A DNA stretch of 64,000 nt from an uncultured virus (IMG/VR IMGVR_UViG_3300036766_002285) (Duplodnaviria > Heunggongvirae > Uroviricota > Caudoviricetes): IMG/VR virus record IMGVR_UViG_3300036766_002285; one strand, given 5' to 3'. This document shows, one piece after another, positions 9,107-52,970 of this stretch. Position 1 is the stretch's first letter, and each line of letters opens with the position of its first letter. Both the position numbers and the translations under genes were made by a program. The notes below the pieces were generated by a model. That model saw only the letters and a program-made list of their open reading frames with translations. It had not been told where the DNA came from and did no database searches.

Positions 9107-9121
9107 TAGAGGAATTACATT

Positions 9122-17382: not shown

Positions 17383-17507
17383 TGCAATTCCCACAGTTGC
17401 TGTACACTATTGGCGCGCCGCTCGCCAAGTGCGTAATACTAGCCTCAAATAAATTTGTACGGTACATAAACAGCACAATTCCTATAATATTAAAAGTTTT
17501 AGATAAA

Positions 17508-18242: not shown

Positions 18243-18260
18243 GCTAACCTCCTCGGGCCA

Positions 18261-21468: not shown

Positions 21469-21482
21469 ACTGTAGTTTTCCC

Positions 21483-24893: not shown

Positions 24894-25016
24894 ACTATTA
24901 TTGTGCTTTAAATTTGATTTTTAGCACTTAAATATTCACATATTTACCGAATTTGGGTGTGCCATTTGACACCAAAAACACGTTAAAATACATAACAAAT
25001 AATGGCATATAAACAA

Positions 25017-27057: not shown

Positions 27058-27714
27058 ATGATTCATAGACTTTCCCGTGCTCGGGTTCTAGAAATTATAG
27101 CAAGTAAAGGGACTCTGTTTGAAGCTGACCTAGGAGGCCTTGATTTGCATGGAATTAATTTTGCGGGCATAAGCTTAGCCGAAGCAAATTTAAACGATAC
27201 CAATCTAACCACCGCCAATTTGTCCAATTGTGACCTAGCCAAAGCAAGCTTTTGTGGCGCACTTATGAAAGACGCTAACCTATCTTATTCAAATTTGGCT
27301 GGAGCATGTATGTCAGGGATAGACGGCGAGAGAGCTAACTTTTTTGAAGCAAATTTAACCAAAGCAGATTTGGATGAGGCCAACTTAAGCAGCGCCATCT
27401 TAACAGGAGTGGTCGCTGCTGGTTTGGGGATAGCGCCCCACACTGATTTGGAGTATGTACTAGTATGTGGTACAGATCTCAGCGATGCCAATCTAAGTCG
27501 TGCGGATTTTAGAGGTGCAGATTTTTTTGGAGCTGATTTTAGTGGCGCAGCTCTGGTAAATACAGATCTAGAAAATACTAATTTAGAAAACACAGACTTC
27601 TCTGATGCTAATTTGGGCGGAGCAAATCTATTCAAATCGTATATGAAAAACACAAATCTTAATGGAGTTCTTCTGGTAGGCGCTACCATGCCTGATGGGA
27701 CCAAACATGAATAA
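27058..27714 (+). CDS. Pentapeptide-repeat protein (array 3)
   Basis: Rfr repeats, tail ATMPDGTKHE. Confidence 0.9.
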   Translation: MIHRLSRARVLEIIASKGTLFEADLGGLDLHGINFAGISLAEANLNDTNLTTANLSNCDLAKASFCGALMKDANLSYSNLAGACMSGIDGERANFFEANLTKADLDEANLSSAILTGVVAAGLGIAPHTDLEYVLVCGTDLSDANLSRADFRGADFFGADFSGAALVNTDLENTNLENTDFSDANLGGANLFKSYMKNTNLNGVLLVGATMPDGTKHE

Positions 27715-28357
27715 TAAGACTCCAAAACTTACTCGCCAGAAAGTGCTAGCAATAATAGCAGCCAGAGGTACTCTAGCTGAGACCAATTTACGCGGAGTTG
27801 CTTTACATGGAATTAACTTTTCTGGCACTAGTTTAGCTGAAGCTGACCTAACAAAGGCCAACTTGACAGGTGCGAATTTGTCCAATTGTGATCTAGCCAA
27901 AGCAAATTTCAAAGACGCACTCCTAGAAGGTGCTGATCTATCACGCTCGAACCTGGCTGGAGCTAGTCTGTACAATACAAAAAGTAAAAATGCTAACTTT
28001 TTCAAAGCAAATTTAACTCGCACATTTATGTACGGTTGCGATCTTAGGCATGCTAATTTAGTTGAAGTAACAGCCTGCGGCTTTGGTGCAGATAACCACG
28101 TGTTGATTGGTTATGTAGATCTAAGGTCGGCCAATTTAACGCAAGCAGATTTTAGAGGCGCAGATTTTGAAAAGTCTAATTTTTCGCAAGCAAATTTGAC
28201 AAACACAGATTTAGACAACGCTAACCTAAAAGATGCAAAGTTTACAAGTGCTAACTTGAGTGGAGCTAATCTATTTAAAGCCGCAGTTAAAATGAGGCAA
28301 TTAGAAACCGCTATACTTTTCGGCACCATCATGCCTGCCGGAGAAATTCATGAATAA
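27707..28357 (+). CDS. Pentapeptide-repeat protein (array 3)
   Basis: Rfr repeats; start inside the upstream tail. Confidence 0.9.
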   Translation: MNNKTPKLTRQKVLAIIAARGTLAETNLRGVALHGINFSGTSLAEADLTKANLTGANLSNCDLAKANFKDALLEGADLSRSNLAGASLYNTKSKNANFFKANLTRTFMYGCDLRHANLVEVTACGFGADNHVLIGYVDLRSANLTQADFRGADFEKSNFSQANLTNTDLDNANLKDAKFTSANLSGANLFKAAVKMRQLETAILFGTIMPAGEIHE

Positions 28358-28374
28358 GTACAATCGGTGTTTCT

Positions 28375-29043
28375 ATGTCTAGTAAACTAACTCGTATTAA
28401 AGTCTTAAAAATTATAGCAAGCAAAGGCACCCTATTTGAAGCAGAACTAGAAGGGCTTGATTTACATGGAATTAATTTTCTTGGTATCAGTTTATCTGGG
28501 GCCAGTTTACAAGATGCTGACCTGTCGCGTGCTAATCTAACCAGTTGCGATTTAGTCAGAGCTTGTCTTCATGCAACAAATTTAGAAGGTGCTGACTTAT
28601 CTCACTCAAATTTGGCTGGAGCTAATATGTCAGGTATACAAGGTAAGAATGCTAACTTCGTGTGCGCAAATCTAACCAGAGCAGATATAGACGAAGCTAA
28701 CCTAAGTGGTGCGAACCTAAAAGGAGTAGTCGCCGCAGGTTTTGGGGTAGCAGGCACAAGCAGTCAAGCTGAGTTCGTGTATATTAGTCATACAGATCTA
28801 TCTCGCGCTGATCTAAGTCATGCAGATTTTAGAGGCGCCTATTTTAGAGGCACAAATTTTACCCAGGCAAATCTAACAAACACTGACCTAGAAAATGCTA
28901 ATTTAACAAGGATAAATTTTACAAATGCTAATTTGCAAGGCGCAAACCTGTATAATTCCGAGGTGGAAAAGGCAAACCTTAGCAGAGCTATCCTGAAGGG
29001 CACTATTATGCCAGACGGCAGCGTCACAAGCAGCAGCAAATGA
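28375..29043 (+). CDS. Pentapeptide-repeat protein (array 3)
   Basis: Rfr repeats; close paralog of the 27058 gene. Confidence 0.9.
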   Translation: MSSKLTRIKVLKIIASKGTLFEAELEGLDLHGINFLGISLSGASLQDADLSRANLTSCDLVRACLHATNLEGADLSHSNLAGANMSGIQGKNANFVCANLTRADIDEANLSGANLKGVVAAGFGVAGTSSQAEFVYISHTDLSRADLSHADFRGAYFRGTNFTQANLTNTDLENANLTRINFTNANLQGANLYNSEVEKANLSRAILKGTIMPDGSVTSSSK

Positions 29044-29084
29044 TTAGTCTAAAGGTGTCACTCTAATGGTAATCATAATATTTA

Positions 29085-29744
29085 ATGGCGGTATTGTTAA
29101 TGGTTAAACAAAAATCTACTGTAAAAGAAGTCATAGAGATTATAAATAATAGAGGCAGTTTACAGAATATTGACTTATCCTATCTAGATCTATCCAACAT
29201 TGATTTTCTCGGTATAGGTTTATCCAAAATTGATCTGAGTCATGTTATTTTAAAGAGCTCAAATCTCTCTCATTGTGATTTAACCGAATTTTATGCCTCC
29301 GGTGTAGATTTATCTTCTACCAATATTTCTAGTGGCGCACTTGCCGGAGCCGCTATATATAAGTCCAAAGCCTGTGGCGCTAATTTTTTCGAAGCAAATT
29401 TAACCAAGTCATCCATACAAGAGTCTGATTTCAGTAATACAAATTTCACCGGAGCAATCATGGCAGGTTTTGGTCTTAAGTACGCCACATATTTAACAAA
29501 AGTAAATTTTAAACAAGCTACATTTGTTCGTGCAGACCTTCGAGGGGCATGCTTTAAAGATGTAAATTTTGAGAGAGCAGATCTAGAAGGAGCCGACCTA
29601 GAAGGAGCAATTTTTATAGGCTGTGATTTTAATGGTACAATATTTAAAAAGGCAAACCTCACCCACTGCAGCATAGAACTAACACTACTTAAAAATGCAG
29701 ATCTCACAGACTGCACCATGCCAGATGGCACCATCCATGCATAG
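29085..29744 (+). CDS. Pentapeptide-repeat protein (array 3)
   Basis: Rfr repeats, tail CTMPDGTIHA. Confidence 0.9.
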   Translation: MAVLLMVKQKSTVKEVIEIINNRGSLQNIDLSYLDLSNIDFLGIGLSKIDLSHVILKSSNLSHCDLTEFYASGVDLSSTNISSGALAGAAIYKSKACGANFFEANLTKSSIQESDFSNTNFTGAIMAGFGLKYATYLTKVNFKQATFVRADLRGACFKDVNFERADLEGADLEGAIFIGCDFNGTIFKKANLTHCSIELTLLKNADLTDCTMPDGTIHA

Positions 29745-29753
29745 TTTACTTGT

Positions 29754-30401
29754 GTGGCTAATATGATTACTAACCTTTGCCGTAGAGACGTCGAAGCCAA
29801 GATAGCACTAGGCACGAGTTTAGCTGAAACGGACCTAAGAAATTTAGATCTTCAAAGTATAGATTTCACAGGTTTATCTATTAATGACGCTCACCTAGGC
29901 GAAACAAACCTGTCTTCAGCCAATCTATCCAACTGCGATCTAACCAGGTCGTATCTTGGTCGGACTGACCTTACCTGTGCTAATTTATCTTACTCAAATT
30001 TGGCTGGCGCTGAACTATACTGGATAAATGCGGCCGGTGCCGATTTTAGTTTTGCAAATTTAACCAGAACAACCATTCATGAATCTAATTTTAGTAAAGT
30101 CATTATGACTAATGTAGTTGTAGCTGGTTATAAAAAATACGGCGCACTTATACTTTATACTGATTTTACCGGTGCTATTTTAACTAATTCTGATCTGCAA
30201 GGCTCCACACTTGAGGGCTCGATTTTTGACGATGCTGATTTGCGCTGTTGTAATTTACAAGGCACTGATTTAAGCGGAGTAAGTTTTCAAAACACAATAC
30301 TTAAAGGCGCTAGTTTATTTAAATCAGCTTGTAAACTTTCACAGCTTGCAAGCTGTGATCTGACACAAACAATTATGCCAGATGGAACAATACATGTATA
30401 A
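29754..30401 (+). CDS. Pentapeptide-repeat protein (array 3)
   Basis: Rfr repeats, tail TIMPDGTIHV; start uncertain (29754 or 29763). Confidence 0.9.
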   Translation: MANMITNLCRRDVEAKIALGTSLAETDLRNLDLQSIDFTGLSINDAHLGETNLSSANLSNCDLTRSYLGRTDLTCANLSYSNLAGAELYWINAAGADFSFANLTRTTIHESNFSKVIMTNVVVAGYKKYGALILYTDFTGAILTNSDLQGSTLEGSIFDDADLRCCNLQGTDLSGVSFQNTILKGASLFKSACKLSQLASCDLTQTIMPDGTIHV

Positions 30402-30437
30402 GCACAGATCAAACACAAACAAACCAAGGAGCATATA

Positions 30438-30884
30438 ATGATTGAAATAACACCCCCAAATACATACCAGTATTTCGCTCGCTCAGTTTTTCTTGCGGGC
30501 GGAATTTCTAACTGCCCGAACTGGCAAAAAGATTTAATAGCTATGCTTGAGTCTACTAATTTAGGCATCTTCAATCCTCGCCAAGATAATTATACAAACA
30601 ATCAAGCAGCAGCAACCACGCAAATACAATGGGAGCATACACATTTACGCATGGCTACTGCCATCTCTTTTTGGTTTCCTAGTCAAACATTATGCCCGAT
30701 TACTTTATATGAACTTGGTTATTGGTCGAGTTTGCAAAAACCGATATTTATAGGGGTGCATCCAGATTTCGAACGAAAACTGGACGTATCTATTCAGACT
30801 TCGTTAGTTGTGCCTGAAATTAAAATTGTAGATTCTCTAGAAGCTCTAGCCGGGCAACTAATCAAATATGATAGTAGCAAATAA
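30438..30884 (+). CDS. Nucleoside 2-deoxyribosyltransferase-like protein
   Basis: SVFLAGGI, NWQ, FNPR, QIQWE, ISFWF, CPITLYELG. Confidence 0.8.
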   Translation: MIEITPPNTYQYFARSVFLAGGISNCPNWQKDLIAMLESTNLGIFNPRQDNYTNNQAAATTQIQWEHTHLRMATAISFWFPSQTLCPITLYELGYWSSLQKPIFIGVHPDFERKLDVSIQTSLVVPEIKIVDSLEALAGQLIKYDSSK

Positions 30885-30964
30885 CAACCATTCATTTATA
30901 GAAATTCCTAGCGCCAACGGTATAATCCATGTTACTCGCTAGGCACAAAAGGAGATAAATATAC

Positions 30965-31570
30965 CTGAAAAATCTATCCCGCCCACAAATTCGAGAAATT
31001 ATAGAAAGTCGCGGTACCTTAGCAGACGTCAACTTATATGGAAGAGATCTGCATGGAATTGACTTTTCTGGGATCTGTCTTTCTGGGGCTGGTTTGCAGG
31101 GGGCAAATATAACGGGGTCTACTTTTATTGGCTGTGATCTAACTAAAATAAATCTACACGGTGTTGATGCTAGTAATATTAATTTTTCCAATAGCTCTCT
31201 GTCAGGTGCGTGGATGAATAGGTCAAATTTTAAAGGTGCGATTCTTCACAAAGCTAATTTAACAAGGGCTACGATCTGGTCAGCAGATTTTGAAGGCGCC
31301 GACCTAAGTGAAACTAATATGGCAGGTTTCGGGGACATGTTCATGGATTTTTCGTACACTAATTTAACAAAAGCTAATCTTAAAAATGCAGATCTTAGGG
31401 GAGTTTATTTAGAAGGCGCCATGCTAACGGATGCGGATTTAACCAATTGTGATCTGAGGGGTGCTGATCTTACTGAAGCGAATCTTAAAGGCGCAACTGT
31501 AAATCTCGCCCAACTTAAAAATGCTCATCTGTTTAGAACTATAATGCCAGATGGGAGTACCCATGGATAA
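30965..31570 (+). CDS. Pentapeptide-repeat protein (array 4) with probable non-canonical start
   Basis: Family N-cap LSRPQIREIIESRGTLA is encoded upstream of the tracked TTG; only ATA (30959) or CTG (30965) lie between SD AAGGAG/in-frame TAA and the cap. Confidence 0.8.
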   Translation: MKNLSRPQIREIIESRGTLADVNLYGRDLHGIDFSGICLSGAGLQGANITGSTFIGCDLTKINLHGVDASNINFSNSSLSGAWMNRSNFKGAILHKANLTRATIWSADFEGADLSETNMAGFGDMFMDFSYTNLTKANLKNADLRGVYLEGAMLTDADLTNCDLRGADLTEANLKGATVNLAQLKNAHLFRTIMPDGSTHG

Positions 31571-32213
31571 CACCCCACTAAACAGAGATGATGTACTCGC
31601 TGTAGTTGCTTCCGGCAAAAGTCTAGCTAATACAGATATGCGCGGTGCCCTGCTAAATGATATTGATTTTTTTGGTATATCACTGTCCGGATCTTATTTA
31701 CAGGGCGCCTGGTTACGAGGAGCCAATATGTCTAACTGCGATCTGACGCGCGCTAGCTTGTACAATACCGATCTAAGAGATACCAACCTGACTCGTGCCA
31801 ACTTATCTGGAGCAGACCTATCAAGGGCGGTGGCTACAGGAGCTACTTTTTTTGAAGCTAATCTTACTCGTGCCACCCTACGCAATACAAATCTTAGTTG
31901 CGCTGATTTGGCAGGTATAATCGCTTCCGGCGATGGTGAAAAATATATGACAATATTTTCATACGCAGACTTCACAGACGCTAATTTAAGTCGCGCTGAC
32001 CTGAGAGGAGCTAATTTTCAAGGAGCAAAACTCGAAAGGACTAATTTAGAAAATGCTGATCTAGAAAATACCGATCTGTCGGCTGCTGATATGACCGGCT
32101 GTGACTTAAGTGGAGCAAATTTACTTAGAGCCTCAGTGCACTTACCCGGGCTCACCTTAGCGCTAGCTACTTTAACCAATACTACCATGCCAGACGGTAG
32201 TATTCATGAGTAA
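31563..32213 (+). CDS. Pentapeptide-repeat protein (array 4)
   Basis: Rfr repeats; start inside the upstream tail after GGGAG. Confidence 0.9.
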   Translation: MDNTPLNRDDVLAVVASGKSLANTDMRGALLNDIDFFGISLSGSYLQGAWLRGANMSNCDLTRASLYNTDLRDTNLTRANLSGADLSRAVATGATFFEANLTRATLRNTNLSCADLAGIIASGDGEKYMTIFSYADFTDANLSRADLRGANFQGAKLERTNLENADLENTDLSAADMTGCDLSGANLLRASVHLPGLTLALATLTNTTMPDGSIHE

Positions 32214-32913
32214 ACTTCAACCAGATGCTCTAAATAAATTTAGCAGAAAAACAGTTATTGCCAGGATTGCCGCTCATAAAAATTTAGTCGGCCTGGATCT
32301 AAGCGCCCTTGATCTGCATGGAATTGACTTTGCTAAAAGTAGTCTAAGCTATGCAGATCTGAGCAATGCCAACTTAGAAGGCGCTGACTTGTCCAACTGC
32401 GATTTAACGAAAGCAGACTTATCTTCAGCAGATTTAACTTGTACTAATTTGGCTTATTGTCTACTGGCAGGTGCCTTTCTAGAAGGAGCAACCTTAAGAA
32501 AAGCTAATTTATATAAAGCCAATCTAAGTAGAGCTGATTTATCAGCCGCTGATTTAATCGAAACTGACTTACGTTGTGCTAATTTATCTGGAACCTATGA
32601 TTTTTTTACAGATCTTTGGGACGCCAAGCTTACTTCGGCTGATCTTAGCGGTGCTGATTGTCGTAACGCAAGATTTTATGGAGCCAGGCTGCACCATGTA
32701 AATTTTACACAAGCCGACCTCTCTCATGCTTCTTTTAAGAAAGCGGATTGCTTAAAAGCCGATTTTACGGGCGCGATATTATTTGAGGCGAATTTGACTG
32801 ATGCATGTTTACAGAAGGCTATTTTCAAAAATGTAGATCTGCAAAATACCATGTTGCCTAGCGGCGAATATCCAGTAAACTCAAGCCACATTAGGGCATT
32901 TTGTGACTATTAA
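32206..32913 (+). CDS. Pentapeptide-repeat protein (array 4)
   Basis: Rfr repeats; start inside the upstream tail; variant tail TMLPSG. Confidence 0.9.
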   Translation: MSKLQPDALNKFSRKTVIARIAAHKNLVGLDLSALDLHGIDFAKSSLSYADLSNANLEGADLSNCDLTKADLSSADLTCTNLAYCLLAGAFLEGATLRKANLYKANLSRADLSAADLIETDLRCANLSGTYDFFTDLWDAKLTSADLSGADCRNARFYGARLHHVNFTQADLSHASFKKADCLKADFTGAILFEANLTDACLQKAIFKNVDLQNTMLPSGEYPVNSSHIRAFCDY

Positions 32914-34744: not shown

Positions 34745-35284
34745 GTGAGTAATGCAGCAAATCATAGTTTGCCTATAAACTCTAATATTAAATCTAAATC
34801 AGTGCGCGTTGTGCTCCCCACTGGCGAATTTCAAGGTGAAATGCCTATAGCAGAAGCACTAGAATTGGCGAGAAGTATGGATTTAGACTTAGTGGAAGTG
34901 AGTAGCAATGCAGAGTCAGGTGTATGTAAAATTATGTCGTATGCTAAATGGCAGTATACTAAAGATAAAGCTGCCCGTAAGTCTAAACAGCATAATATCG
35001 TTGTAAAAGATCTTAAATTTAAAGTAGGTATAGGGGTCCAAGATTTGAAAGTCAAATGTCAGCATATTGTAGACATGCTACGACATGGAGATCAAGTGAA
35101 AGTCAGTATACTAATGCGGGGCCGGGAAGTAACCCACCCAGAAATAGCTGACAAGCTGGTAGAAAGTGTTCTGGGCACAGTGGGCAGCATTGGACAGTGC
35201 GATGGAATTATACATAAGTCACAACGTCAATATAACTTTACTCTTGTACCGGCACGGGCTGTAAAAAAAGTAGCCAAAAATTAG
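34745..35284 (+). CDS. infC: Translation initiation factor IF-3
   Basis: INSNI...VRVV, ALELA...DLDLVEVS, VCKIM, GDQVKVSI.MRGRE.THPE. Confidence 0.92.
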   Translation: MSNAANHSLPINSNIKSKSVRVVLPTGEFQGEMPIAEALELARSMDLDLVEVSSNAESGVCKIMSYAKWQYTKDKAARKSKQHNIVVKDLKFKVGIGVQDLKVKCQHIVDMLRHGDQVKVSILMRGREVTHPEIADKLVESVLGTVGSIGQCDGIIHKSQRQYNFTLVPARAVKKVAKN

Positions 35285-35288
35285 TAAA

Positions 35289-36311
35289 GGCCGTGGAGCG
35301 CTAGATACTGTCTTTCAACAGAAAATCTAAAACACTCCACGGCCACTTCCGGAGACCAGGTCAAAAGGAGATAATGACATTGGTAGTCCGGTTCCGTAGC
35401 TACTCTTTTCCACAATGGGTTAGGAGCAGTTTAGGTTGCCACGCACTCGCGCTAAGCGTGCTAGGGGTAAGCACCACAAAGCCGCAACAGTCCGGCAAGA
35501 AACCTATAAGTTTTATATGTAAATGTTACATGTATGAATTGTTTACGATACTCTAGGGGCGAATTTTAAATACCCAAATATTAAATTGCGCCTCACAGAA
35601 TTTTTATTTTTTGCCATATTCTTGTCATATATATTTGATAGCATAGTTAAGTTTCTTTTGAGGTTTTATAGCAAAGATATCAGGCATCAGCTGCTTCCTG
35701 TTGCCCATAAAGCCTGTAAATTAAAGGAAATTAAATCAAGCTCAGCCTATTGGCACATTTGAAATCGCGCGCACAGTATTATATACCCTCGAGGACTTAT
35801 TTGCAGATGCATCTCTTGCACCTACAGATGGGTGCAGAATATCTGCTAAAAAACAGTTAGTTTAGCTCCGGCCACTAACATCGCGAAGGCGAGTTTTTTA
35901 CTAAAGACGGCGAATGGAAACAGTACCCCTGAATCCACTCAGCCGTCGGGTGCATTACGAAAATATTTACTTCTCATTTAGTTGCGGCCACAGCCGTACA
36001 AAATAGATATAAATATCTGAACTTATGTGATTCATATCACATAGAATGCTAAAAGCGCAAGTGAAGTCGCCTACATGGGACTTCGAAAGTATTTGTTAGA
36101 ATTGCCTACATGGAATTTTAACAGCTCTTGCACTTAAGTGTGATTATACAGGCCTTGAAAACGCTTGAACATTTATCACAGGAATTCTAGCTAGCGAAAG
36201 TTGGTTGAGAATTTGAAGGACGATTTCAACAATTGAAATCAAAACTATAATAAACGGGGTACTAGAAGATGACCCCCAAGGTTGATATTTGACCTCACGG
36301 GGTCATTTTTA
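35289..36311. ncRNA. Candidate structured non-coding RNA region (unassigned)
   Basis: ~1 kb without a credible ORF, with many hairpins (35289-35344, 35803-35846, 35906-35947, 36063-36084, 36094-36123, 36266-36311) and promoter-like motifs on both strands. Confidence 0.5.
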
Positions 36312-36374
36312 TTATATTAGCTATGCATTTTATAAACATCTATTTAATTACAATTTCCACTTCGCAGATATGGT

Positions 36375-39300
36375 CTACCGAGCGGCGCGTTGTACTGCCG
36401 AGTTGACCCGACGAAGTGATTCGTCGCGACCTAATAATTCAATTGGCTCAAACAACGGTGCACCAATGCTTCGCCCGGTGATAGCCACCCGCAGCGGGGC
36501 CTGCAGTTTTCCAAGTTTGACATCATGCTGCATACCAACAGCTTCGACTTCTGTCTTTAACGCATCGGCTGTCCACTCACACTTTTCAAATCGTGCCGCG
36601 ATCTCGATCAATGTTGGACGCGCCCATTTGGTGTTAAATGCCTTTGTAAATGCATCGCCATCAATGATTGGCTCTGCCATAAATAGAAAATCGACCAAGG
36701 CCGGAACTTCTGCAAGTACAGCAACGCGAGTCTGAACGAGCGGTGCCATCGCCCTAAATACGGCCGCATCGAACCGGTGTGCCGGCCAAGGGACATTTTC
36801 TGATCCAAGTACACTTTGACATGCCTCAATAAAATCCTCCAGAGACAGCGCTCGAATGTATTCACCGTTGAAGGCGTTCATTTTTTTGACGTCAAAAAAA
36901 GCTGGAGAATGATTTACATCTTCCAATCTGAATTCATCAACGATGGATGACCACGGGACAATTTCGCTGTCACCGCTGGGTGCCCATCCGAGAGTCATCA
37001 GATAGGAGATCATGGCTTGCGGCAATACTCCTTCACTGCGATACTGTTTGACAGCCACCTTGTCGCGGCGCTTAGATAGTTTTTTGTGCTCCTTGTTAAC
37101 CAAAACAGGAACATGAGCCCATGTCGGCAGCGGTGCGCCTAATGCGTTCCACAACATCTGTTGCTTTGGGGTGTTCGATAAATGCTCTTCAGCGCGCACC
37201 ACATCAGTGATGTTCATCGCAATATCGTCCACCACATTGGCCAACAGAAACACTGGCGTTCCATTACTTCGCAACAATACGAAATCTTCAATAGTATCAT
37301 TAGCAAAAGTCACATCACCACGCACAATGTCGCGTATGACAGTCAGTCCGACCGGAACTCTAAATCGCAATACACGTCCCGGCCCAGGACCAAGCCCAAG
37401 GTCACGTGAGTAATCATCGTAGCCATTTAGGCCAGAGGCCTTCGCTCGCTCCTGAACCTGGATCGATGTAAGATCATAATAGTACGCGTGACCAGAAGCG
37501 AAAAGCGCTTCTGCGGCTTCGACATGCGCGGCCGCAAAAGAGGATTGAAAATACGGCCCCTCAAAATGCGGGTCACTACTGTCTATTCCGAGCCAAGCGA
37601 GCGCATCAAGTATTCCTTGAGTCCATTGCGGATGGTTGCGCGACTCGTCGGTGTCTTCAATACGCAACACGAACACACCATCATTTTGTAACGCTAATAT
37701 CCAGTTGTACAGAGCAGTACGCCCGCCGCCGACATGGAAAAATCCAGTTGGAGACGGAGCAAAACGGTACCGATGCGCGTCTGATTGACTTGGGGCGATT
37801 TTGTTGAGCTTTGCCATTTGAACCGCAAATGTATCTAGATTAGCATGCGACTCCGTCACTGCATCGATTGCGTCTTGTCTAACTTTTACAGGCGACTTAT
37901 AATGAGATTGTGCCGATACATGGGTGCCTTCTTTTGTGGTCTCAACAATGAAGCCAGCTTCCTGCAGCTCCATACGAATTGCATCAGCCGAGGCAAAATC
38001 TTTTGCTGATCTAGCCGCGTCTAGATCAGCAGCCCGCTGTTTGACTACCTCATCAATTTCATCGGTCTGACCTAAAACGAGTCCAACGGCCCCAAACAGT
38101 TCGATTACTGCTGCAGCTAGGCTTGCAGCTTGGACTTTATTACCACGATCTAAGGCTGTATTGGCCTGACTAATCGCCTCAAAGATGTGTGCAACTGCTC
38201 CTGGAGTATCAAGATCGTTATTCATGAGTTCGCGGAATTTAGTTAGCACACTTTGATCTGGAGCGATTTTATCAAGATTTACCATCCGAGACACAAATGC
38301 ATCTAAATTAGCAAGCGACCGGCACGCTGCATCGATTGTGTCTTGTCCAATTTTTACAGGCGATCTATAATGGGACTGTAATAATATTATTCGAAATGCA
38401 CGTGGGTCATAGTGCTCGATCAGATCAACCAGATTGGTAACATTTCCGAGACTTTTAGACATCTTGACACCTGTTGTATCTACGACAAAAGCGTGATGCA
38501 TCCAGTGCTGCGCAAACACCTTGTTTAGTGCTACAGCCTGGGCACGTTCGTTTTCGTGGTGCGGAAAACGAAGATCCTCACCCCCACAGTGCAAATCAAA
38601 ATTTTCACCAAGTAATTCTAAACTCATGACCACGCATTCACTGTGCCAACCCGGCCGGCCATCTCCCCACGGAGAAGTCCATGCTGGTTCGCCTGGCTTA
38701 GAAAATTTCCATAATGCAAAGTCCGCCGTATTTCGTTTCGCAGCAACACCAAGTACTTCACGCTCCCCATTACTTAGCATATCATCTAATGACTGTAAGG
38801 CAAGCAACCCATAGTCAGATACAGTTGTAATATCCATGTATACACCGTCACAGGTCAAGTAGGCGAATTTACCTTCTACCAATTTTTCAATCATTTCTAC
38901 CATCTGTTCTACATACTCAGTTGCATGCGGAGTATCAATGTCCGTAGGTTTTTTCACCCCAAGTTTGCCCATTGTTTCAAACCAAACGTCTTCACACTCA
39001 CTTGCGATTTCAGACCACAGGCGACCCTCTAGTTGTGCGCGATCGATGATTTTATCGTCGATATCAGTAATATTTGAAACCAAACGAACCTCTACGCCGC
39101 ACCATTCCATGTAACGACGTAAAATGTCATAAACAATAGTTGCCCGTCCATGTCCTATGTGCGGTGGACCATATACTGTAGGGCCACATAGATACATACC
39201 AAGTTTGCCTGGTTCGCGACAGCCGAGCTCTCGGATCTCTTGTGTGGCGGTATCATAGAGAGACAAAACGGGCATAAGCTTAGTAGTGTCCGTATTGGCA

Positions 39301-40619
39301 CCCACTTGTCCTAAGATGTTTTCTGACGTTAATTTGCCACAGGCGGTCCTAACTGCTTCTAGGGTCGTTACAGGCCCCACAAGGGTCGCAAGTGCCCTAC
39401 AGGATTCTATAGGGTCAGCCGTTAAGGCAGCTAGAAGCATAGAAATATGCAGGTCTGTTTTGGCAAGTTCTATTATAAGTGTTTCAACAACCACATTTGA
39501 AGGACCGCAAAATATAGGAGTAGTAGATATTGTATTACCATACAACTGAACCTCATAATGAGCTGCTATAGATCCATTTTGAATAGAATACATTAGTTTT
39601 GGTTTTTCTCCAACACATCCGGCCGCTATGTCAATTGGCATATCAGAAAAAGTTGCTGTCACCGTAAATAAGTTGTTTATCTTACCATTTGGCAGTGTTC
39701 CTTGTTTTTGTATTTTGATATGCACCTGTTGGCCGCCGGCAGCTATTAGTAGCTTTTTAGCATAAAGAATATTTGTATGGCTTTTACAAGAAACTTTTAA
39801 CTTGCTGCCAGTAGAAAGAGAACTTAGATCAGTTATTATTCCAGGTAACTTAGATAAGTTTCTAGCAAGTCTGTCTTGCAGTTTCAAGGTGTCTGGGAGC
39901 GGAGCTGTAAATTTTATGTTTTTTTCGTTACCGGCATTAATACCCACTTTGACTGCCTCTCGAACTAGTTCACGAGAAAGCTTGGTAAGATCTATTTTGT
40001 ATTCAGGATGCGCTGGAGAATTGATTAAATTTGCCTGCACATCTAAAATATGTTTCCCACCTAAGTGTTTAATTGCGATCGTCAGCGCTAAAGCAGGATC
40101 TGTACTTCTTGATATTTGGTCTAACATGGTTCGTCTGGCTAGTACACCAATATTTGCAAGTTTAGCAATACGACAGAAACGAGCTATCATCTGTTTATCT
40201 AGCTCAGACGCCCTGGCACCAAATTCGCCAATGATACAAGATCCTTCTGGTAATAGTTTTATATCATGAAACTGCAATATGTTAGGAGCCGGATGTCCGC
40301 GACGTTGTTCTACAACTATGGCCCCGCGTGGAATTTTTACTCCCGGCTTCATACTTACAGCCTGTCCGGTTATCTCATCTAGATACCACTGATTTAGTTT
40401 GGTTGGGCGGGTACGTCGACTCATCTTCTTGTCCAGCTCGGCTTCTTTTTTACGACCAGATTGTTTTGCACACGGACGTTTGCGGGAGTTCTTTTTAGGT
40501 CCATTCAAAAATATATCTGCATTGTTTTCAACGCACACGGCTTGGGTAGGCAGCTCTGCTTTAGTCTCTGCATGAAGTGCTGGTTCGCCTATTTTAATGA
40601 AATTTAAAGATTCTGGCAT
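36375..40619 (-). CDS. Fusion protein: unknown ~448-aa N-domain + cysteinyl-tRNA synthetase + glutamyl-tRNA synthetase
   Basis: CysRS (39275-~37917): CGPTVY, HIGH, PGWHSEC, FPHHENE, KMSKS. GluRS (~37775-36375): RFAPSPTG, HVGG, LRIEDTD, KLSKR. One uninterrupted frame. Confidence 0.92.
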   Translation of the reverse strand: MPESLNFIKIGEPALHAETKAELPTQAVCVENNADIFLNGPKKNSRKRPCAKQSGRKKEAELDKKMSRRTRPTKLNQWYLDEITGQAVSMKPGVKIPRGAIVVEQRRGHPAPNILQFHDIKLLPEGSCIIGEFGARASELDKQMIARFCRIAKLANIGVLARRTMLDQISRSTDPALALTIAIKHLGGKHILDVQANLINSPAHPEYKIDLTKLSRELVREAVKVGINAGNEKNIKFTAPLPDTLKLQDRLARNLSKLPGIITDLSSLSTGSKLKVSCKSHTNILYAKKLLIAAGGQQVHIKIQKQGTLPNGKINNLFTVTATFSDMPIDIAAGCVGEKPKLMYSIQNGSIAAHYEVQLYGNTISTTPIFCGPSNVVVETLIIELAKTDLHISMLLAALTADPIESCRALATLVGPVTTLEAVRTACGKLTSENILGQVGANTDTTKLMPVLSLYDTATQEIRELGCREPGKLGMYLCGPTVYGPPHIGHGRATIVYDILRRYMEWCGVEVRLVSNITDIDDKIIDRAQLEGRLWSEIASECEDVWFETMGKLGVKKPTDIDTPHATEYVEQMVEMIEKLVEGKFAYLTCDGVYMDITTVSDYGLLALQSLDDMLSNGEREVLGVAAKRNTADFALWKFSKPGEPAWTSPWGDGRPGWHSECVVMSLELLGENFDLHCGGEDLRFPHHENERAQAVALNKVFAQHWMHHAFVVDTTGVKMSKSLGNVTNLVDLIEHYDPRAFRIILLQSHYRSPVKIGQDTIDAACRSLANLDAFVSRMVNLDKIAPDQSVLTKFRELMNNDLDTPGAVAHIFEAISQANTALDRGNKVQAASLAAAVIELFGAVGLVLGQTDEIDEVVKQRAADLDAARSAKDFASADAIRMELQEAGFIVETTKEGTHVSAQSHYKSPVKVRQDAIDAVTESHANLDTFAVQMAKLNKIAPSQSDAHRYRFAPSPTGFFHVGGGRTALYNWILALQNDGVFVLRIEDTDESRNHPQWTQGILDALAWLGIDSSDPHFEGPYFQSSFAAAHVEAAEALFASGHAYYYDLTSIQVQERAKASGLNGYDDYSRDLGLGPGPGRVLRFRVPVGLTVIRDIVRGDVTFANDTIEDFVLLRSNGTPVFLLANVVDDIAMNITDVVRAEEHLSNTPKQQMLWNALGAPLPTWAHVPVLVNKEHKKLSKRRDKVAVKQYRSEGVLPQAMISYLMTLGWAPSGDSEIVPWSSIVDEFRLEDVNHSPAFFDVKKMNAFNGEYIRALSLEDFIEACQSVLGSENVPWPAHRFDAAVFRAMAPLVQTRVAVLAEVPALVDFLFMAEPIIDGDAFTKAFNTKWARPTLIEIAARFEKCEWTADALKTEVEAVGMQHDVKLGKLQAPLRVAITGRSIGAPLFEPIELLGRDESLRRVNSAVQRAAR
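37782..38378 (-). repeat. 129-nt internal duplication (38250-38378 and 37782-37910)
   Basis: QSHYRSPVKIGQDTIDAACRSLANLDAFVSRMVNLDKIAPDQS vs QSHYKSPVKVRQDAIDAVTESHANLDTFAVQMAKLNKIAPSQS. Confidence 0.9.
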
Positions 40620-40779
40620 AGGTTCTCTTTTTTATGTCTCAAGTCAGACATTACTTTCTCCTTTCTTGTCTAAGTACTCTAAAGGGCCTTTGTCTAAAAA
40701 CAAGCTACGCCCGGCTGTTTTATAGTTTAAACGCTTGTGCTCTTATCTAGGGCGCTTATAGTATACTGAAAGGAGAACA

Positions 40780-41406
40780 ATGAATATAACAAAACTTAAC
40801 GTTGAGCAGATCTTAGAAAATGCTGACTTATGTAAGGATTTTAATGGCGTAGATTTAAGCGAGTTAAATCTCAGAGGTATAAAGCTTAGTGAAGCCAATT
40901 TATCTGGTGTAAACTTGTGCCGCACAGACCTATCTAAAGCCGACCTATACAAAGTAAATCTCAGTCGTGCTACTTTAGATAAGGCGTCATTCACACTCGC
41001 CAATCTTAATTATGCACTCTTTACTGCAGCGTCGCTGTCAAAAACAGATTTTAGAGCTGCTCACCTCTATAAAGCAGACTTTGAGGGGAGCATTGCAACG
41101 TCTGCAAAATTTACTGGCGCAGATCTTGAAAGCGCTAATTTTGAAGGTGCCGACCTTAGTTTCACTTTATTTGATAAAGCGTATCTTTTATATGCCAATT
41201 TATCTAAAGCTAATCTAAAACAAGCTTTTATGCTGGGAGCCGATTTTACTTCGGCTGATTTAACTGGAGCTAATCTTCATGGTGCTGATTTAACAGGTTG
41301 TAATCTTCAAGGTGCAAACTTAACCGGCGCACAGCTTTTTGAAACCATCCTTGCCTATACAAATCTAACCAAAACAATAATGCCAGATGGAAGCATTCAT
41401 GAGTAA
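40780..41406 (+). CDS. Pentapeptide-repeat protein (array 5)
   Basis: Rfr repeats, SD AAGGAG, tail TIMPDGSIHE. Confidence 0.9.
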   Translation: MNITKLNVEQILENADLCKDFNGVDLSELNLRGIKLSEANLSGVNLCRTDLSKADLYKVNLSRATLDKASFTLANLNYALFTAASLSKTDFRAAHLYKADFEGSIATSAKFTGADLESANFEGADLSFTLFDKAYLLYANLSKANLKQAFMLGADFTSADLTGANLHGADLTGCNLQGANLTGAQLFETILAYTNLTKTIMPDGSIHE

Positions 41407-42016
41407 AAATATTAGTTTGAAACACAATGACCGAAAAATTGTCGAATTTAATGACAAATATGGTAATAAAAAGTTTTTAATTTGTGGCAATGTCTCTGCA
41501 TCCAACGTAACAAACCCTTCGTCTGCTACTACCTTTATTATAGATCGTCTTGAGGATATTGATTTAAAACGACCATGGCCTATTGCACATATAGACTTAA
41601 GACAAGTAACGTTCGACTTGACAGATCTTAGTGGCACGCGTTTCCATAGTGTAAACTTTGAAGGAGCATCCTTGCGTGGGACTAATCTGCAGGCGTCTAT
41701 TTTAACTAACGCAAACCTACAAGGCGCCGACATGTCTCAAGCAAATCTCAGGGACGCTGATCTTGATGATGCAAACTTACAAAAAGCAAATTTCTATCAA
41801 GCTGATCTAGCGTATGCAGATCTGGGGGACGCGAACCTTCAAAAAGCAAATTTTATTGAAGCTAACCTAACACATGCCCATTTGTGGGGGATAGATTTTA
41901 ATGGAGCCAATTTTTCTTCTGCCAATCTTTATGGTTCAGAGTTAGATTTTGATGTTGATTTCTTATGTGCGACATTTGCAGGTGCTACCATGCCAGACGG
42001 GAGTATTCATGAGTAA
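41399..42016 (+). CDS. Pentapeptide-repeat protein (array 5) with extended non-repeat N-terminus
   Basis: Start inside the upstream tail; tail ATMPDGSIHE. Confidence 0.9.
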   Translation: MSKNISLKHNDRKIVEFNDKYGNKKFLICGNVSASNVTNPSSATTFIIDRLEDIDLKRPWPIAHIDLRQVTFDLTDLSGTRFHSVNFEGASLRGTNLQASILTNANLQGADMSQANLRDADLDDANLQKANFYQADLAYADLGDANLQKANFIEANLTHAHLWGIDFNGANFSSANLYGSELDFDVDFLCATFAGATMPDGSIHE

Positions 42017-42971
42017 AAGTAATCTATCTAGAGAACAAGTATTAGCAAGACATGCGACCGGAAAAGGTCTCACCAAAATGGATTTATGCGGGCTAAACTT
42101 GGCTCATTGTTCTTTGAATAAAGCGGATTTCCATGAGTCTCTAATGAACGATATTGTTTTCGTGGAGTCTAATCTTGAATATGCTGATTTTTCGCACACT
42201 AAATTAAACAGTTCTAATTTTGATAACACCCATTTAATCCACGCAAATTTTAAAGGATCTGAGCTAGCTAAAAGTACTTTTATTCGCGCACGAGCAGATC
42301 ATATGAATTGCATGGGCGCAGATCTGACCTCAGCCAATTTATCTGGAGCAATTATGATAGGAGCTAGTTTTGTAGATGCCGAAATGCCTCACGTCAATTT
42401 AACTAGAGTTGAGGCCACACATGCAGCTTTTACTGGCGCTAACTTAACTGATGCAAATATAGCTGGATTCGGAAAATATTCTGCTTATTTTTATCAGGTC
42501 TATTTTATTAAGACCAATCTAACAAGAGCTGACCTGCAAGGAGCTTTCTTATTTGAAGCAAGCTTCAATCAGGCTAACCTTACCTATGTAAATCTAACTG
42601 GTGCTAATTTAATACGTGCTGACCTTTCTCAAGCAAATATGTCACGAGCTAATCTTGAACGCGCATATATGCAAGGCGCTAACTTGTTTGGTGTTAACTT
42701 GTCTATGGCAAACTTTAATGGGGCGAATTTGAGAGATGCGGATTTAAGGTTCACTAATTTATGCAATTGTGTCTTTACGAATTCAAGTCTAAGTGATGCT
42801 GACTTACGAGGTGCTAATTTGTATGGTGCTGACTTTACTAATACAAACTTAAGCGGTGCTGACTTTACCGGTAGCCAATGTGAAAATACTTGTTGGGACG
42901 GCGCCCTATTTGAAAATACTATTATGTCTGATGGGACTATAAGAAACAGCGCCGACAAGGACGAAAGCTAA
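42009..42971 (+). CDS. Long pentapeptide-repeat protein (array 5)
   Basis: Start inside the upstream tail after GGGAG; tail TIMSDG. Confidence 0.9.
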   Translation: MSKSNLSREQVLARHATGKGLTKMDLCGLNLAHCSLNKADFHESLMNDIVFVESNLEYADFSHTKLNSSNFDNTHLIHANFKGSELAKSTFIRARADHMNCMGADLTSANLSGAIMIGASFVDAEMPHVNLTRVEATHAAFTGANLTDANIAGFGKYSAYFYQVYFIKTNLTRADLQGAFLFEASFNQANLTYVNLTGANLIRADLSQANMSRANLERAYMQGANLFGVNLSMANFNGANLRDADLRFTNLCNCVFTNSSLSDADLRGANLYGADFTNTNLSGADFTGSQCENTCWDGALFENTIMSDGTIRNSADKDES

Positions 42972-42972
42972 T

Positions 42973-43257
42973 ATGCGTAGTATTATAGTAACCACTGTGA
43001 AAAATAATGAGACGTTTATCTACACTTTTGAGGTAGACAGCTGGATGACTAGCTGTACAGTGCAGCGGATCGATGTAGATACAGAAACATTTGCTAGTAT
43101 CTTTAATACTATAGAAATACACTCGTCAACAAGCATACCTACGGATGTTAAAATCGGTCAAAATTTCACATTTGAGGTATTGGCTGGCTACAATAATGAT
43201 CGACCGCACGTTGTGTTAGCTGGTTCAGTCGTTTCTGTTGATCAAAAAGAGCTGTAA
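42973..43257 (+). CDS. Hypothetical beta-rich protein within PRP operon
   Basis: Abuts both neighbours (1-2 nt gaps). Confidence 0.6.
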   Translation: MRSIIVTTVKNNETFIYTFEVDSWMTSCTVQRIDVDTETFASIFNTIEIHSSTSIPTDVKIGQNFTFEVLAGYNNDRPHVVLAGSVVSVDQKEL

Positions 43258-43259
43258 AC

Positions 43260-43715
43260 GTGGGTGCGCTAAATAGACAAGAAGTCATAGCAAGACTACA
43301 AAACAGAGATACCCTAGCTAGAGCCGACTTAACTTGTGTGGATTTGAGCGATTTAGATCTAAGAGAAGTTAATCTGTATCAAACAAACCTTAAGAACGCT
43401 AACTTGAACAGATCTGACCTATCCCATAGTGTGCTGTGGAGAGCGAGCCTTAATAAAGCAACATTGCATGGAACCAATCTATCATATACCATTTTAAGCG
43501 GGGCATATCTTCATAATGCCGAACTACCCCATGCGAATCTAAAATATGCAAACTTAACCGACGCTAATTTATGTGGGGCTGATTTAATGTACGCAGACCT
43601 CTCATATGCAGACCTGTCAGGTGCTGATTTAACTGGAGCCCATATATTTGGAACAATATTTGATAATACTATTTTGACTAACACGCTTATGACTAATGGC
43701 CTGGTCCTAGAGTAG
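43260..43715 (+). CDS. Pentapeptide-repeat protein (array 5)
   Basis: Rfr repeats, tail TLMTNG. Confidence 0.9.
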   Translation: MGALNRQEVIARLQNRDTLARADLTCVDLSDLDLREVNLYQTNLKNANLNRSDLSHSVLWRASLNKATLHGTNLSYTILSGAYLHNAELPHANLKYANLTDANLCGADLMYADLSYADLSGADLTGAHIFGTIFDNTILTNTLMTNGLVLE

Positions 43716-43779
43716 TAAATGCCTCCAAACTAAAGTCGCACAATTGGCCCCTATAGTAGACTTATATCAAAGGAGCAGC

Positions 43780-44841
43780 ATGACTAACCAGGATAGTAAA
43801 TGTAAAAATATTGAGATTCTAGTATCGCAAGGCTCAGATCTTGCTGGGTCAAAATTGGCCGGTGCTAATTTGTTTAAAGCGAACCTTAAAGGTGCGAAGT
43901 TGTCGAAATCTGATCTAAAAGAGATAAACCTTGAAAAAGCTAACCTAAAATATGCTGACTTAAGTGGCTGTGACCTGCGTGGTGCTGATTTAAGAGAAGC
44001 TAACTTTAAGTGCGCAAACCTATCTTTTGCTAATTTAACCAATGCAGTTTTAGATAATGCCTATATGGACCAAGCGGATTTAAGAGGAGCTATGTTTGTT
44101 GATGCCGCTTTGAGTGCGGTATCTTTTATAGGCGCCAAACTGCAACAGGCCAACTTTGAGGGAGCTGATTTGAGAAACGCAAATTTTTTTCACACAGACC
44201 TGACAAATGTAACCTTGACCGGTGCTGACTTGTTGGGGGCAACGTTGTGCGGGGCTAATTTAGCTCATTGTGGGCTCGATGGCGTATATTTTTATGACAC
44301 TCGTCTTGACAAAACAGATTTTAAAAATCTTGATTTACGTAAAGTATCTTTTGAACGTGCTTCAGTTAAAAATGCAGATTTTAGCTGTGCAAATCTTAGA
44401 GGCGTGAATCTTTACAAAGCAAATCTTGAGGGTTCTCTCTTTATTAACGCTAACTTGGACATTGCTACTCTTATGAGTGCTCAAATGATGGGTGCGAATC
44501 TGACCGGTGCTACCCTTCGACAAGCGGACTTGCGGGGCGCAGACCTAAGTAAAGCAAATCTAAATGTAGCTGATATGTTTGGAGCAAACCTTGCTAGTGT
44601 TGTGTTGGCGGGAGCTAATCTTAGATCTGCAAACTTAGAGGAGGCTGATTTAACTAATGTCGATCTAAAAGGTGCTAATCTTAGATGCGCTAATTTACAA
44701 AAAGCTATTTGTATTGAAACAGATTTCAGTGGTGCTGATTTGACTGGAGCAAATTTATTAGGCGCGAACGCTACTTTGGCAAACTGTAGGGGTGCTATTC
44801 TCGATAGTGTTATTTTGCCAGACGGAACTGTCTATAAATAG
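43780..44841 (+). CDS. Long pentapeptide-repeat protein (array 5)
   Basis: Rfr repeats, SD AAGGAG before ATG 43780, tail VILPDG. Confidence 0.9.
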   Translation: MTNQDSKCKNIEILVSQGSDLAGSKLAGANLFKANLKGAKLSKSDLKEINLEKANLKYADLSGCDLRGADLREANFKCANLSFANLTNAVLDNAYMDQADLRGAMFVDAALSAVSFIGAKLQQANFEGADLRNANFFHTDLTNVTLTGADLLGATLCGANLAHCGLDGVYFYDTRLDKTDFKNLDLRKVSFERASVKNADFSCANLRGVNLYKANLEGSLFINANLDIATLMSAQMMGANLTGATLRQADLRGADLSKANLNVADMFGANLASVVLAGANLRSANLEEADLTNVDLKGANLRCANLQKAICIETDFSGADLTGANLLGANATLANCRGAILDSVILPDGTVYK

Positions 44842-44978
44842 AACCATACCTCCGATTTAGATGCTTATAGTAGATCTAATATAGTTAACTTGTAATATCG
44901 ATGTAATTTTTTGGTAACATTTGTATAAATAGCTAGTTATAGTGTAGCGCTTTGCTAACAGCACGTAACAATGTTAGT

Positions 44979-45506
44979 ATGCCCTCGGAAAACAATACTA
45001 TTATTACTAAACATAAATTTCTAACAATAATACTAGCAACAATGCTAGCGGCTTGCTTATTTTATATTGTAATGCCTGTAGTAGTTCATAGTGTAAGACC
45101 AAATTTATGCGGGGGCTGGGAAAACCGGCCGGTTCAAATAGAACCTATAAAATATTCAGATATCGAAATTTTGCGTAAAACGACTACCGTAGTCCATTTT
45201 CCTAGAATGCTGGCTACCGTATTACCAGCACGAGGGATATCTGTGCCTGGAGTGGTGGCTGTTATAGATAATATAGACACAAAAGCCAGGGAATATTTAT
45301 TAATACACGAAATGGTTCACCAGTATCAGTATAAACGTGACGGAAAATTTGCATTCATGCTAAAATATACAGTAGACTTTCATAGAGGACTAATTCGTGG
45401 ATGCTCGTTTTCTAAAGCATACAGAGCTATTTACTATGAAATTGAGGCTGATGAAGTAGCGCACTACGCAGTAGTAAGTCGCTGTAATGTTAGTATATGG
45501 TGTTAA
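44979..45506 (+). CDS. Membrane-anchored HExxH metallopeptidase-like protein (DUF4157-like)
   Basis: N-terminal TM; LIHEMVHQYQY...YEIEA. Confidence 0.65.
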   Translation: MPSENNTIITKHKFLTIILATMLAACLFYIVMPVVVHSVRPNLCGGWENRPVQIEPIKYSDIEILRKTTTVVHFPRMLATVLPARGISVPGVVAVIDNIDTKAREYLLIHEMVHQYQYKRDGKFAFMLKYTVDFHRGLIRGCSFSKAYRAIYYEIEADEVAHYAVVSRCNVSIWC

Positions 45507-52575: not shown

Positions 52576-52580
52576 GGTTT

Positions 52581-52907
52581 TCAGCTGAAAGACTGACCGC
52601 ATCCGCAGGTACGACTTGCTCCAGGATTTGTTATTTTAAAACCGGCGTCCATGAGACCATCGTTATAATCAAGAGTAGCTTGTTCCAATAAAACAGCGCT
52701 TTGGTTATCTACTATAACATTAACACCGTGTTGATTAGTTATCGTACAGGGTTCTTCTTGATGATCTAAAGTATCAAAATACATTTCGTACGAATACCCA
52801 GAACAACCGCCAGGCCTAACTGCTACTCGGAGTGCCATATTAGGAGTACCGTCGGTTGCGAGAAGTGCTGAAATTTTAGTAGCTGCGGTTTCGGTGATAG
52901 TTATCAT
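52581..52907 (-). CDS. A-type Fe-S carrier (HesB/IscA/SufA/ErpA family)
   Basis: ITITETA, GGCSG, CGCGQSF. Confidence 0.93.
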   Translation of the reverse strand: MITITETAATKISALLATDGTPNMALRVAVRPGGCSGYSYEMYFDTLDHQEEPCTITNQHGVNVIVDNQSAVLLEQATLDYNDGLMDAGFKITNPGASRTCGCGQSFS

Positions 52908-52970
52908 ATACTATATTGTGCACATATGTGGAGGTTTTGCCATTAGCTGGCCAGTGTTTAAATATGGTTT

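Follow-up and report, generated by a model that had tools for sequence, protein, structure and literature searches.

Covalently joined aminoacyl-tRNA synthetases are textbook rarities, best known from the animal glutamyl-prolyl enzyme (EPRS) and usually tied to eukaryotic multi-synthetase complexes. Here we describe a gene of an uncultured virus (IMG/VR record IMGVR_UViG_3300036766_002285; Caudoviricetes) in which a cysteinyl-tRNA synthetase (CysRS) and a glutamyl-tRNA synthetase (GluRS) share one reading frame with an N-terminal part taken from a small protein family, here called family X. The gene lies in a stretch of 64,000 nucleotides, referred to below as the window, within a parent contig of 616,293 bp, and the gene content of the window resembles that of huge phages. 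We favor, with a probability of about 0.6, the reading that this is a real fused double synthetase of a very large phage-like element and that its product would be one bifunctional chain.

In animal EPRS (PMC7373986, PMC4072531), a class I GluRS and a class II prolyl-tRNA synthetase are joined by WHEP repeats, an arrangement conserved across a large clade. The viral gene is similar in that two complete synthetase cores, one of them a GluRS, stand in one frame with a non-catalytic linker between them. Unlike EPRS, it combines two class I enzymes (Cys then Glu), its linker is a duplicate of a CysRS segment, and it is known as a single copy. No WHEP domain was detected by Pfam in the fused protein, and the gene is, as judged from its sequence, not a member of the EPRS family but resembles it in principle only.

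Among viruses, the closest setting is provided by huge phages, for which Al-Shayeb et al. 2020 (PMC7162821) give up to 15 synthetases as well as the initiation factors IF1/IF3; the synthetases described there are single genes, whereas here two complete enzymes and an unrelated module occupy one frame. Among 80 IMG/VR loci with a CysRS, none holds a GluRS within 6 kb. The preliminary description of this DNA, made from the sequence alone, had been aware of no Cys-Glu fusion, and in a search of proteins of 777-2475 amino acids that scored the 8000 candidates with the most shared words, no other complete one was met. Apart from the query, the two synthetases are combined in a single scored protein, P0003, which has 959 amino acids, comes from a 4.27 Mb bacterial contig and forms a singleton cluster; it has the order Glu then Cys, shows 35% identity to the query, and consists of truncated halves, with the GluRS profile covered at 2-323 of 470 (no anticodon-binding domain) and the CysRS profile at 76-465 of 466 (no HIGH region). 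Elsewhere, we met gltX and cysS naturally linked only in the Firmicutes-type gltX-cysE-cysS cluster, present in an unannotated Staphylococcus record of the phage collection, in which gltX (487 amino acids), cysE (243) and cysS (476) are three separate open reading frames (ORFs) on one strand and in the opposite order, with gltX and cysS 33-35% identical to the query. Among the papers listed by full-text searches of the literature, none concerned a fusion of Cys and Glu synthetases in a phage or bacterium, which is not proof of absence.

Two synthetase modules in one frame

The fused ORF occupies 36375..40619 on the minus strand, starts with ATG and comprises 1414 codons plus a stop in a single open frame, in a window of 40.9% GC. 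The preliminary description had proposed exactly this frame with a complete CysRS and a complete GluRS, and NCBIfam, Pfam and the sequence motifs agree with it. A Logan contig of 44,878 bases, assembled separately from run X1, reproduces the whole ORF without change; X1 is a sediment metagenome and probably the source sample, for which reason this contig checks the assembly and not the biology. It covers 35900-41100 with 0 differences, no joint and a flat word depth of 41, and thus crosses both junctions, at which a check for stops or misassembly had earlier been advised. It is extremely improbable that the assembler linked the family X, CysRS and GluRS pieces by means of shared words, such as those of a repeated CysRS segment. 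Such an artefact could account for the composition steps at both junctions and for the 129-nt internal repeat at the second one, but, apart from the evidence of the Logan contig, the repeat copies, with 32 differences in 129 bases, are too dissimilar to mislead a 31-mer graph, and both junctions are in frame and lie exactly at natural protein ends. Moreover, the synthetase parts are merely 66-83% identical to host genes and therefore do not represent host reads.

The complete CysRS comprises residues 449-902 (37914..39275, minus strand), as delimited by NCBIfam, Pfam, alignment with host enzymes and solved structures. The equivalog model TIGR00435 (cysS) matches residues 452-902 over profile positions 1-464 of 466 with 408.9 bits, compared to a cut-off of 340, and Pfam places a DALR_2 domain in this part. 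The motifs HIGH (residues 487-490, 39150-39161) and KMSKS (residues 719-723, 38451-38465) are present in one copy each. The stretches YLCGP, GWHSEC and HCGGEDLRFPHHENE are also present and align with solved CysRS; their conserved Cys, His and Glu positions are presumably the zinc site of the enzyme. The module aligns end to end with residues 2-456 of E. coli CysRS (1LI5) and keeps 210 of the 222 columns that are at least 98% conserved in its 120 nearest relatives. It lacks merely the last 2-3 residues of the host enzymes, whose start corresponds to M449 at 39275. The module would be expected to charge tRNA-Cys.

The complete GluRS, of the bacterial type, comprises residues 950-1414 (36378..37772, minus strand; delimited by the same four lines of evidence). 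TIGR00464 (gltX_bact, NCBIfam equivalog) matches residues 950-1407 over profile positions 3-465 of 470 with 388.8 bits, against a cut-off of 289.95, and Anticodon_2 (PF19269) is found by Pfam on residues 1278-1408. HVGG (residues 962-965, 37725-37736) and KLSKR (residues 1180-1184, 37068-37082) occur once each, and the same motifs are found in the host enzymes. This module aligns end to end with residues 8-485 of the solved GluRS 2JA2, and 273 of 293 columns are kept under the same definition of conservation. It starts with RYRFAPSPTG, which corresponds to about residue 6 of the host enzymes (host start MASPTPRYRF), so that its own start codon has been lost.

The indirect pathway of tRNA-Gln charging, in which GatCAB operates and glutaminyl-tRNA synthetase (GlnRS) is absent, requires a non-discriminating GluRS. 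In the four host genomes considered, GlnRS exceeds the cut-off in none and GatB in all four; therefore, the host GluRS would have to be non-discriminating. The fused GluRS would charge tRNA-Glu and probably, like the enzyme of the hosts, tRNA-Gln too, a reading drawn from the genomes of the donors.

The family X head and the two joints

Residues 1-450 gave no match in Pfam, NCBIfam or PHROGs, and to this extent the earlier view of an unrecognized N-terminal domain of about 448 residues holds; it is, however, not a free domain but a truncated member of family X, for which nine relatives were found. Among 1.84 billion representative proteins there are 10 matches at E values of 0.001 or lower, of which nine, at 1e-30 or lower, constitute family X; the tenth, P0014, was rejected as an unrelated repeat protein. 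The nine relatives (P0002 and P0006-P0013) are 596-1134 amino acids long and always hold the module inside a larger protein. The closest of them, P0002 (941 amino acids), aligns through its residues 264-672 with query residues 32-438 at 66% identity, the remaining members being 27-39% identical over the same query residues, and all 24 invariant columns of the family are present in the query. P0002 consists of a HAD hydrolase domain (residues 16-236), the module and then approximately 270 further residues, and six more relatives (709-856 amino acids) combine the module with the same C-terminal extension. Across the family the head in front of the basic motif, N-module and C-domain varies, being a HAD domain, LRV repeats or, in P0011, a 900-residue repeat region. 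None of the other family X members is joined to a synthetase.

These comparisons define the boundaries of the N-terminal part. In a tblastn search, residues 218-672 of P0002 match 40631-39306 of the window, so that the match extends 12 bases beyond the annotated ATG on its upstream side. Query residues 1-31 (40527..40619, minus strand) align with the end of the HAD domain of P0002 and are assigned as a C-terminal remnant of a HAD-type hydrolase. Residues 32-438 (39306..40526, minus strand) form the family X N-module according to homology and AlphaFold2. The matches of the seven full-length relatives end at 39300-39312, right after ENILGQ438, and the family X C-domain (about 270-290 residues, ending in a DRGRAL motif) has no match anywhere in the window by tblastn with these seven proteins. 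Between the end of this homology and the start of the host CysRS alignment at M449 lies a joint of 10 residues (439-448; 39276..39305, minus strand). On the sequence evidence, the N-terminal part can thus be described as a 31-residue HAD remnant, a truncated family X module and a 10-residue joint running into M449; that is, as the first two thirds of a family X protein whose usual C-domain has given way to the synthetases.

The N-module contains the motif SRKRPC (40449-40487) in a disordered basic stretch and KLNQWYLD (40377-40400), the family form of which is KLNQ(W/Y)YLD. In the AlphaFold2 model of the N-terminal part, with a mean predicted local distance difference test (pLDDT) score of 75, residues 73-437 are confident and residues 1-72, including SRKRPC...GRK, are disordered; the C-domain of family X was modeled at a pLDDT of 90.9. 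The structure search of the N-terminal part that the preliminary description had recommended gave no clear fold match, and comparison with solved structures and with predicted viral ones yielded no clear relative of this model or of that of the C-domain. Structure searches gave a weak recurrent LAGLIDADG-type likeness for residues ~247-338, which is at background level, and the ESM Atlas returned no usable match. The locus thereby marks a small family with two confidently predicted domains and no match to a solved fold.

Family X was not found in IMG/VR, in 72,556 plasmids or in 50,697 phage records (tblastn, in which no match begins before residue 402), and two peptide patterns found nothing in GTDB species genomes. 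The idea of a cellular family of the hosts found no support, as it was detected in 0 of 401 genomes of the hosts' class. In three metagenome loci (L001-L003), family X stands beside cell-like genes (rubrerythrin, DUF3501, RNase D-like and DprA; SerA-like). In the fused protein, for which the preliminary description had suggested a localizing or scaffolding role of this part, the N-module may be a vestigial passenger of the fusion or a tether.

The Cys-Glu joint is located at 37773-37913, and the preliminary description was accurate in the position of this junction as well as of that at M449. Host CysRS ends with ...EGTRVRRG, and the query reads ...EGTHVS902 and then continues. Residues 904-946 (37782..37910, minus strand) form the linker, which is a diverged in-frame duplicate of CysRS residues 748-790 (38250..38378, minus strand), as revealed by internal repeat comparison; this feature was missed in the preliminary description. 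The two copies are identical at 27 of 43 residues and 97 of 129 bases, with no indel and no stop, and the GluRS core begins three residues after the linker copy. The synonymous divergence (dS) of the duplicate is about 0.41, and the ratio of nonsynonymous to synonymous divergence (dN/dS) is about 0.66. Features such as ANLD and KIAP are common to both copies and not found in the host enzymes; therefore, the duplication arose inside the phage lineage. An origin of the linker from DNA upstream of host gltX was also considered and rejected because the tblastn extensions in seven host loci cross stop codons and show no real similarity.

Capture of the genes and state of the chain

Among stand-alone proteins, the 120 closest to the CysRS part have lengths of 447-463 amino acids, the nearest being 453-457 long, and identities of 67-77% to it; the corresponding set for the GluRS part has lengths of 469-491 amino acids (nearly all 469-471) and identities of 73-83%. 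The named relatives of both belong to Ilumatobacteraceae, Acidimicrobium or Actinomycetota, and 80 GTDB gltX loci with 66-82% identity to the GluRS part are mostly from Ilumatobacteraceae or other Acidimicrobiia. Trees were built from 31 rows each, namely the top 12 hits plus every sixth remaining one. In these trees, CysRS is sister to P0015 (77% identity) with support of 98/94 and a terminal branch of 0.34, and GluRS, on a terminal branch of 0.20, falls inside a clade of 14 rows, supported at 100/100, to which a named Ilumatobacteraceae protein also belongs. By these relationships, both synthetases derive from Ilumatobacteraceae-like hosts.

The GC content at third codon positions (GC3) is 0.308 in the N-terminal part, 0.377 in CysRS, 0.356 in the linker and 0.471 in GluRS; the 66 other ORFs of the window have 0.316 ± 0.041, and host gltX genes 0.59-0.66. 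The greater GC richness of GluRS relative to the N-terminal part, from which a stepwise acquisition had been suggested earlier, is thus borne out. Because of this GC3 gradient, the identities to hosts (66-77% for CysRS vs 70-83% for GluRS) and the terminal branches (0.34 vs 0.20), the data support a stepwise capture in which cysS came first and gltX later, both being old enough for partial amelioration. Relative to the same four host genomes, the identity is 36-39% for initiation factor 3 (IF-3), 61-65% for tryptophanyl-tRNA synthetase (TrpRS), 66-74% for CysRS and 70-82% for GluRS, and TrpRS and IF-3 are older captures than the two fused enzymes. Both are complete genes of the window, with GC3 values entirely like those of the phage: TrpRS at 25073-26095 on the minus strand (TIGR00233, 297 bits vs a cut-off of 176.75; GC3 0.30) and IF-3 at 34745-35284 on the plus strand (TIGR00168, 135 bits vs 60; GC3 0.32). 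In the hosts, cysS and gltX are separated by 278 kb on the main contig of one genome (G001), and the other three genomes carry them on different contigs; cysS is missing from the flanks (up to 3 kb) of all 80 host gltX loci. The two genes are not neighbors there and were therefore brought together by the element itself.

From these data, a course of events may be proposed. The element took up cysS first and gltX later from Ilumatobacteraceae hosts, and in-frame rearrangements would have welded both to the truncated N-terminal part of a resident family X gene. The product would be one chain of about 157 kDa. Its charging of tRNA-Cys and tRNA-Glu, and probably of tRNA-Gln, could top up translation during infection alongside the neighboring TrpRS and IF-3. 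If this is correct, the locus is a natural Cys-Glu double enzyme with building steps that are still readable, namely two captures, a duplicated linker and a truncated resident head, and it would allow a test of how synthetase fusions arise and whether the linkage helps a virus to redirect translation.

The constraint on the coding sequence could be assessed with a relative from another study. Pieces of 151 bases from a freshwater metagenome (run X2) match parts of both synthetase modules at 92-100% identity. The relative is approximately 95% identical, and 17 of 21 listed differences are synonymous (5 of 8 in CysRS, 12 of 13 in GluRS); the pieces hold about 36 differences in total, those near contig ends being outside the 21 listed. 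Both synthetase modules are thus under purifying selection. This bears on whether the gene is a neutral or decaying chimera, that is, an accidental and tolerated weld with at least one inactive module or an unstable protein. The singleton architecture would fit such a state, as would the family X part cut at both ends with its ancestral start broken by a frame shift, the linker with relaxed constraint and the precedent of P0003 as a Cys/Glu chimera of two truncated halves. We nevertheless regard decay as quite improbable: 1414 codons remain free of stops in DNA of 41% GC, the predominance of synonymous differences extends across both synthetase modules, GC3 has been ameliorated far from host values, which indicates that the genes have long been kept, and 24 of 24 invariant family X columns are retained.

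The start region of the gene is unusual. An upstream ORF of 15 codons (40604..40651, minus strand) carries the only strong Shine-Dalgarno (SD) motif of the locus, GGAG at 40658-40661, and overlaps the main start out of frame. Its ATG at 40651 lies 32 nt before the main ATG with an A6 run between them, the same A6 is present in the Logan contig, and the similarity to P0002 crosses the frame break at this run. In our reading, an old frame-breaking deletion would have taken away the HAD part. A programmed -1 frameshift from the upstream ORF was considered and rejected, since the A6 run does not form a canonical X XXY YYZ site in the frame of that ORF and the surrounding 131 nt fold like shuffled sequences (z 0.30).

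A further explanation is that separate enzymes are made, by internal initiation at M449 and perhaps M935 or by proteolysis, so that the fusion would be a means of co-expression. The native ATG of CysRS is retained exactly at the junction, the in-frame ATG of M935 lies 15 codons before the GluRS core, and a promoter-like match is found about 200 nt upstream of M449; moreover, other genes of the element seem to have starts of the leaderless type, and a protease-like ORF is encoded nearby at 44952-45506 (phrog_15610, E 7e-5). On the other hand, neither M449 nor M935 has an SD-like motif within 25 nt; GGAG occurs solely at codons 883 and 922, too distant from M935. The motif GCACARTAW, described below with the leaderless-type starts, was not found inside the fused gene, GluRS has lost its own first residues, and no cleavage site is known. 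Collectively, separate enzymes are unlikely. Translation through both joints is the simplest reading, and a single chain is preferred because GluRS has no start of its own, no usable SD motif is present at M449 or M935, and the reading frame of the linker has survived a dS of about 0.41. No RNA dataset with this stretch is listed among public runs.

Several observations weigh against one functional double enzyme of a phage. The fusion is a singleton, since the collections searched yielded no further fused copy. The annotated start has a weak SD-like GAGA, the strong SD opening the out-of-register frame of 15 codons, and a sigma-70-like match at 39501-39472 (minus strand) could drive an internal transcript. 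CysRS deviates at 12 of 222 near-invariant columns and GluRS at 20 of 293, including A966G beside HVGG and positions 1176-1178 beside KLSKR; no deviation in either module falls inside a signature motif. The X2 pieces lie within the synthetase modules, none of them crossing a junction or reaching the N-module, so that the selection seen is for the modules and not for the fusion; the linker is under relaxed constraint, and the family X module, truncated at both ends, could misfold. Finally, no capsid, portal, terminase or tail gene was found in the window (Pfam on 57 ORFs; PHROGs on 9 + 31 sequences). In the earlier suggestion of a phage-built multi-synthetase, the double frame is real and both halves are complete, but the phage identity is no more than likely, with no structural hallmark in the window.

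Whether a real double enzyme would also be adaptive is a different question. The weld might provide a one-chain viral mini multi-synthetase in which family X, through its conserved and disordered basic head (SRKRPC...GRK) and a fold lacking known relatives, binds nucleic acid or a phage structure, so that CysRS and a non-discriminating GluRS would be held at the site of phage translation or carried into the virion. We consider this rather doubtful; if true, it would be the first tethered, covalently linked pair of class I synthetases outside eukaryotes.

The carrier element and its neighborhood

The window encodes NAD ligase, Fpg, an FtsH-like protein, SufA, SufB with an intein, SbcCD, WhiB and TnpB-type proteins, and PHROG matches were obtained for IF-3, TrpRS, NAD ligase, SbcCD, endonuclease VII, HNH and WhiB. 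The element is likely a phage by this content. CysRS, GluRS, TrpRS and IF-3 all lie within 16 kb and are all related to Ilumatobacteraceae genes, and the hosts are inferred to be freshwater or sediment Ilumatobacteraceae (Acidimicrobiia). The locus thus points to Ilumatobacteraceae, a group of freshwater acIV-type Acidimicrobiia, as probable hosts of a phage-like element of about 0.6 Mb.

SufB (50113-52602, minus strand) is interrupted by an intein with Intein_splicing and LAGLIDADG_3 domains (Pfam), and a SufA-like gene adjoins it at 52581-52907. The GC3 of SufB, 0.49, is the highest of the window and suggests another recent capture from a host. Two TnpB/Cas12f-like genes (OrfB_IS605 + TNB) are found at 14983-16346 and 62077-62901, both on the minus strand, and the first appears split into a helix-turn-helix part (15921-16346) and a remainder (14983-15777). 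The single tRNA gene of the window is a tRNA-Ile with the anticodon TAT (1611-1685, minus strand), and the window has no tRNA-Cys or tRNA-Glu gene.

Pentapeptide-repeat ORFs of about 150-365 amino acids account for 21 of 57 scanned ORFs and form long tandem arrays in which many overlap by a few codons. Such arrays are located at 4470-4943, 7851-11841, 16481-22851, 27058-32913, 40780-44841 and other positions, two of the ORFs flanking the upstream side of the fused gene, and many of these ORFs end in ...MPDGSIHE-like tails.

Leaderless messages are common in Actinomycetota. The motif GCACARTAW occurs at 9 sites in the window, compared to 3.4 ± 1.9 expected, and none of 100 shuffles reaches 9. 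At 7754-7762, 24898-24906 and 52913-52921 (all on the minus strand), its end is separated by 5-6 nt from the following start codon, which lacks an SD motif, and it resembles a -10-type element of leaderless transcripts.

Downstream of the fused gene, an ORF-poor gap of 1.09 kb (35285-36374) contains no ORF longer than 83 amino acids and no Rfam match. A remnant of the family X C-domain was considered for this gap and rejected, as tblastn with the seven relatives gave nothing at E values up to 10, and a remnant of host flanking DNA was likewise rejected after tblastx and blastn against the 80 host loci gave nothing. Within the gap, the 528 nt at 35785-36312 have a folding energy on the plus strand of -172.9 kcal/mol, compared to -118.6 ± 5.9 kcal/mol for shuffled sequences (z -9.2), and the minus strand has a z of -6.4. 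The promoter-like motif GCACAGTAT precedes this segment at 35771-35779 (plus strand), and a terminator-like hairpin with a T-run is located at 36290-36315 (plus strand). The segment is a candidate for a structured RNA of about 0.5 kb, convergent with the synthetase gene, and two of its hairpins have the common loop GCCUACAUGG.

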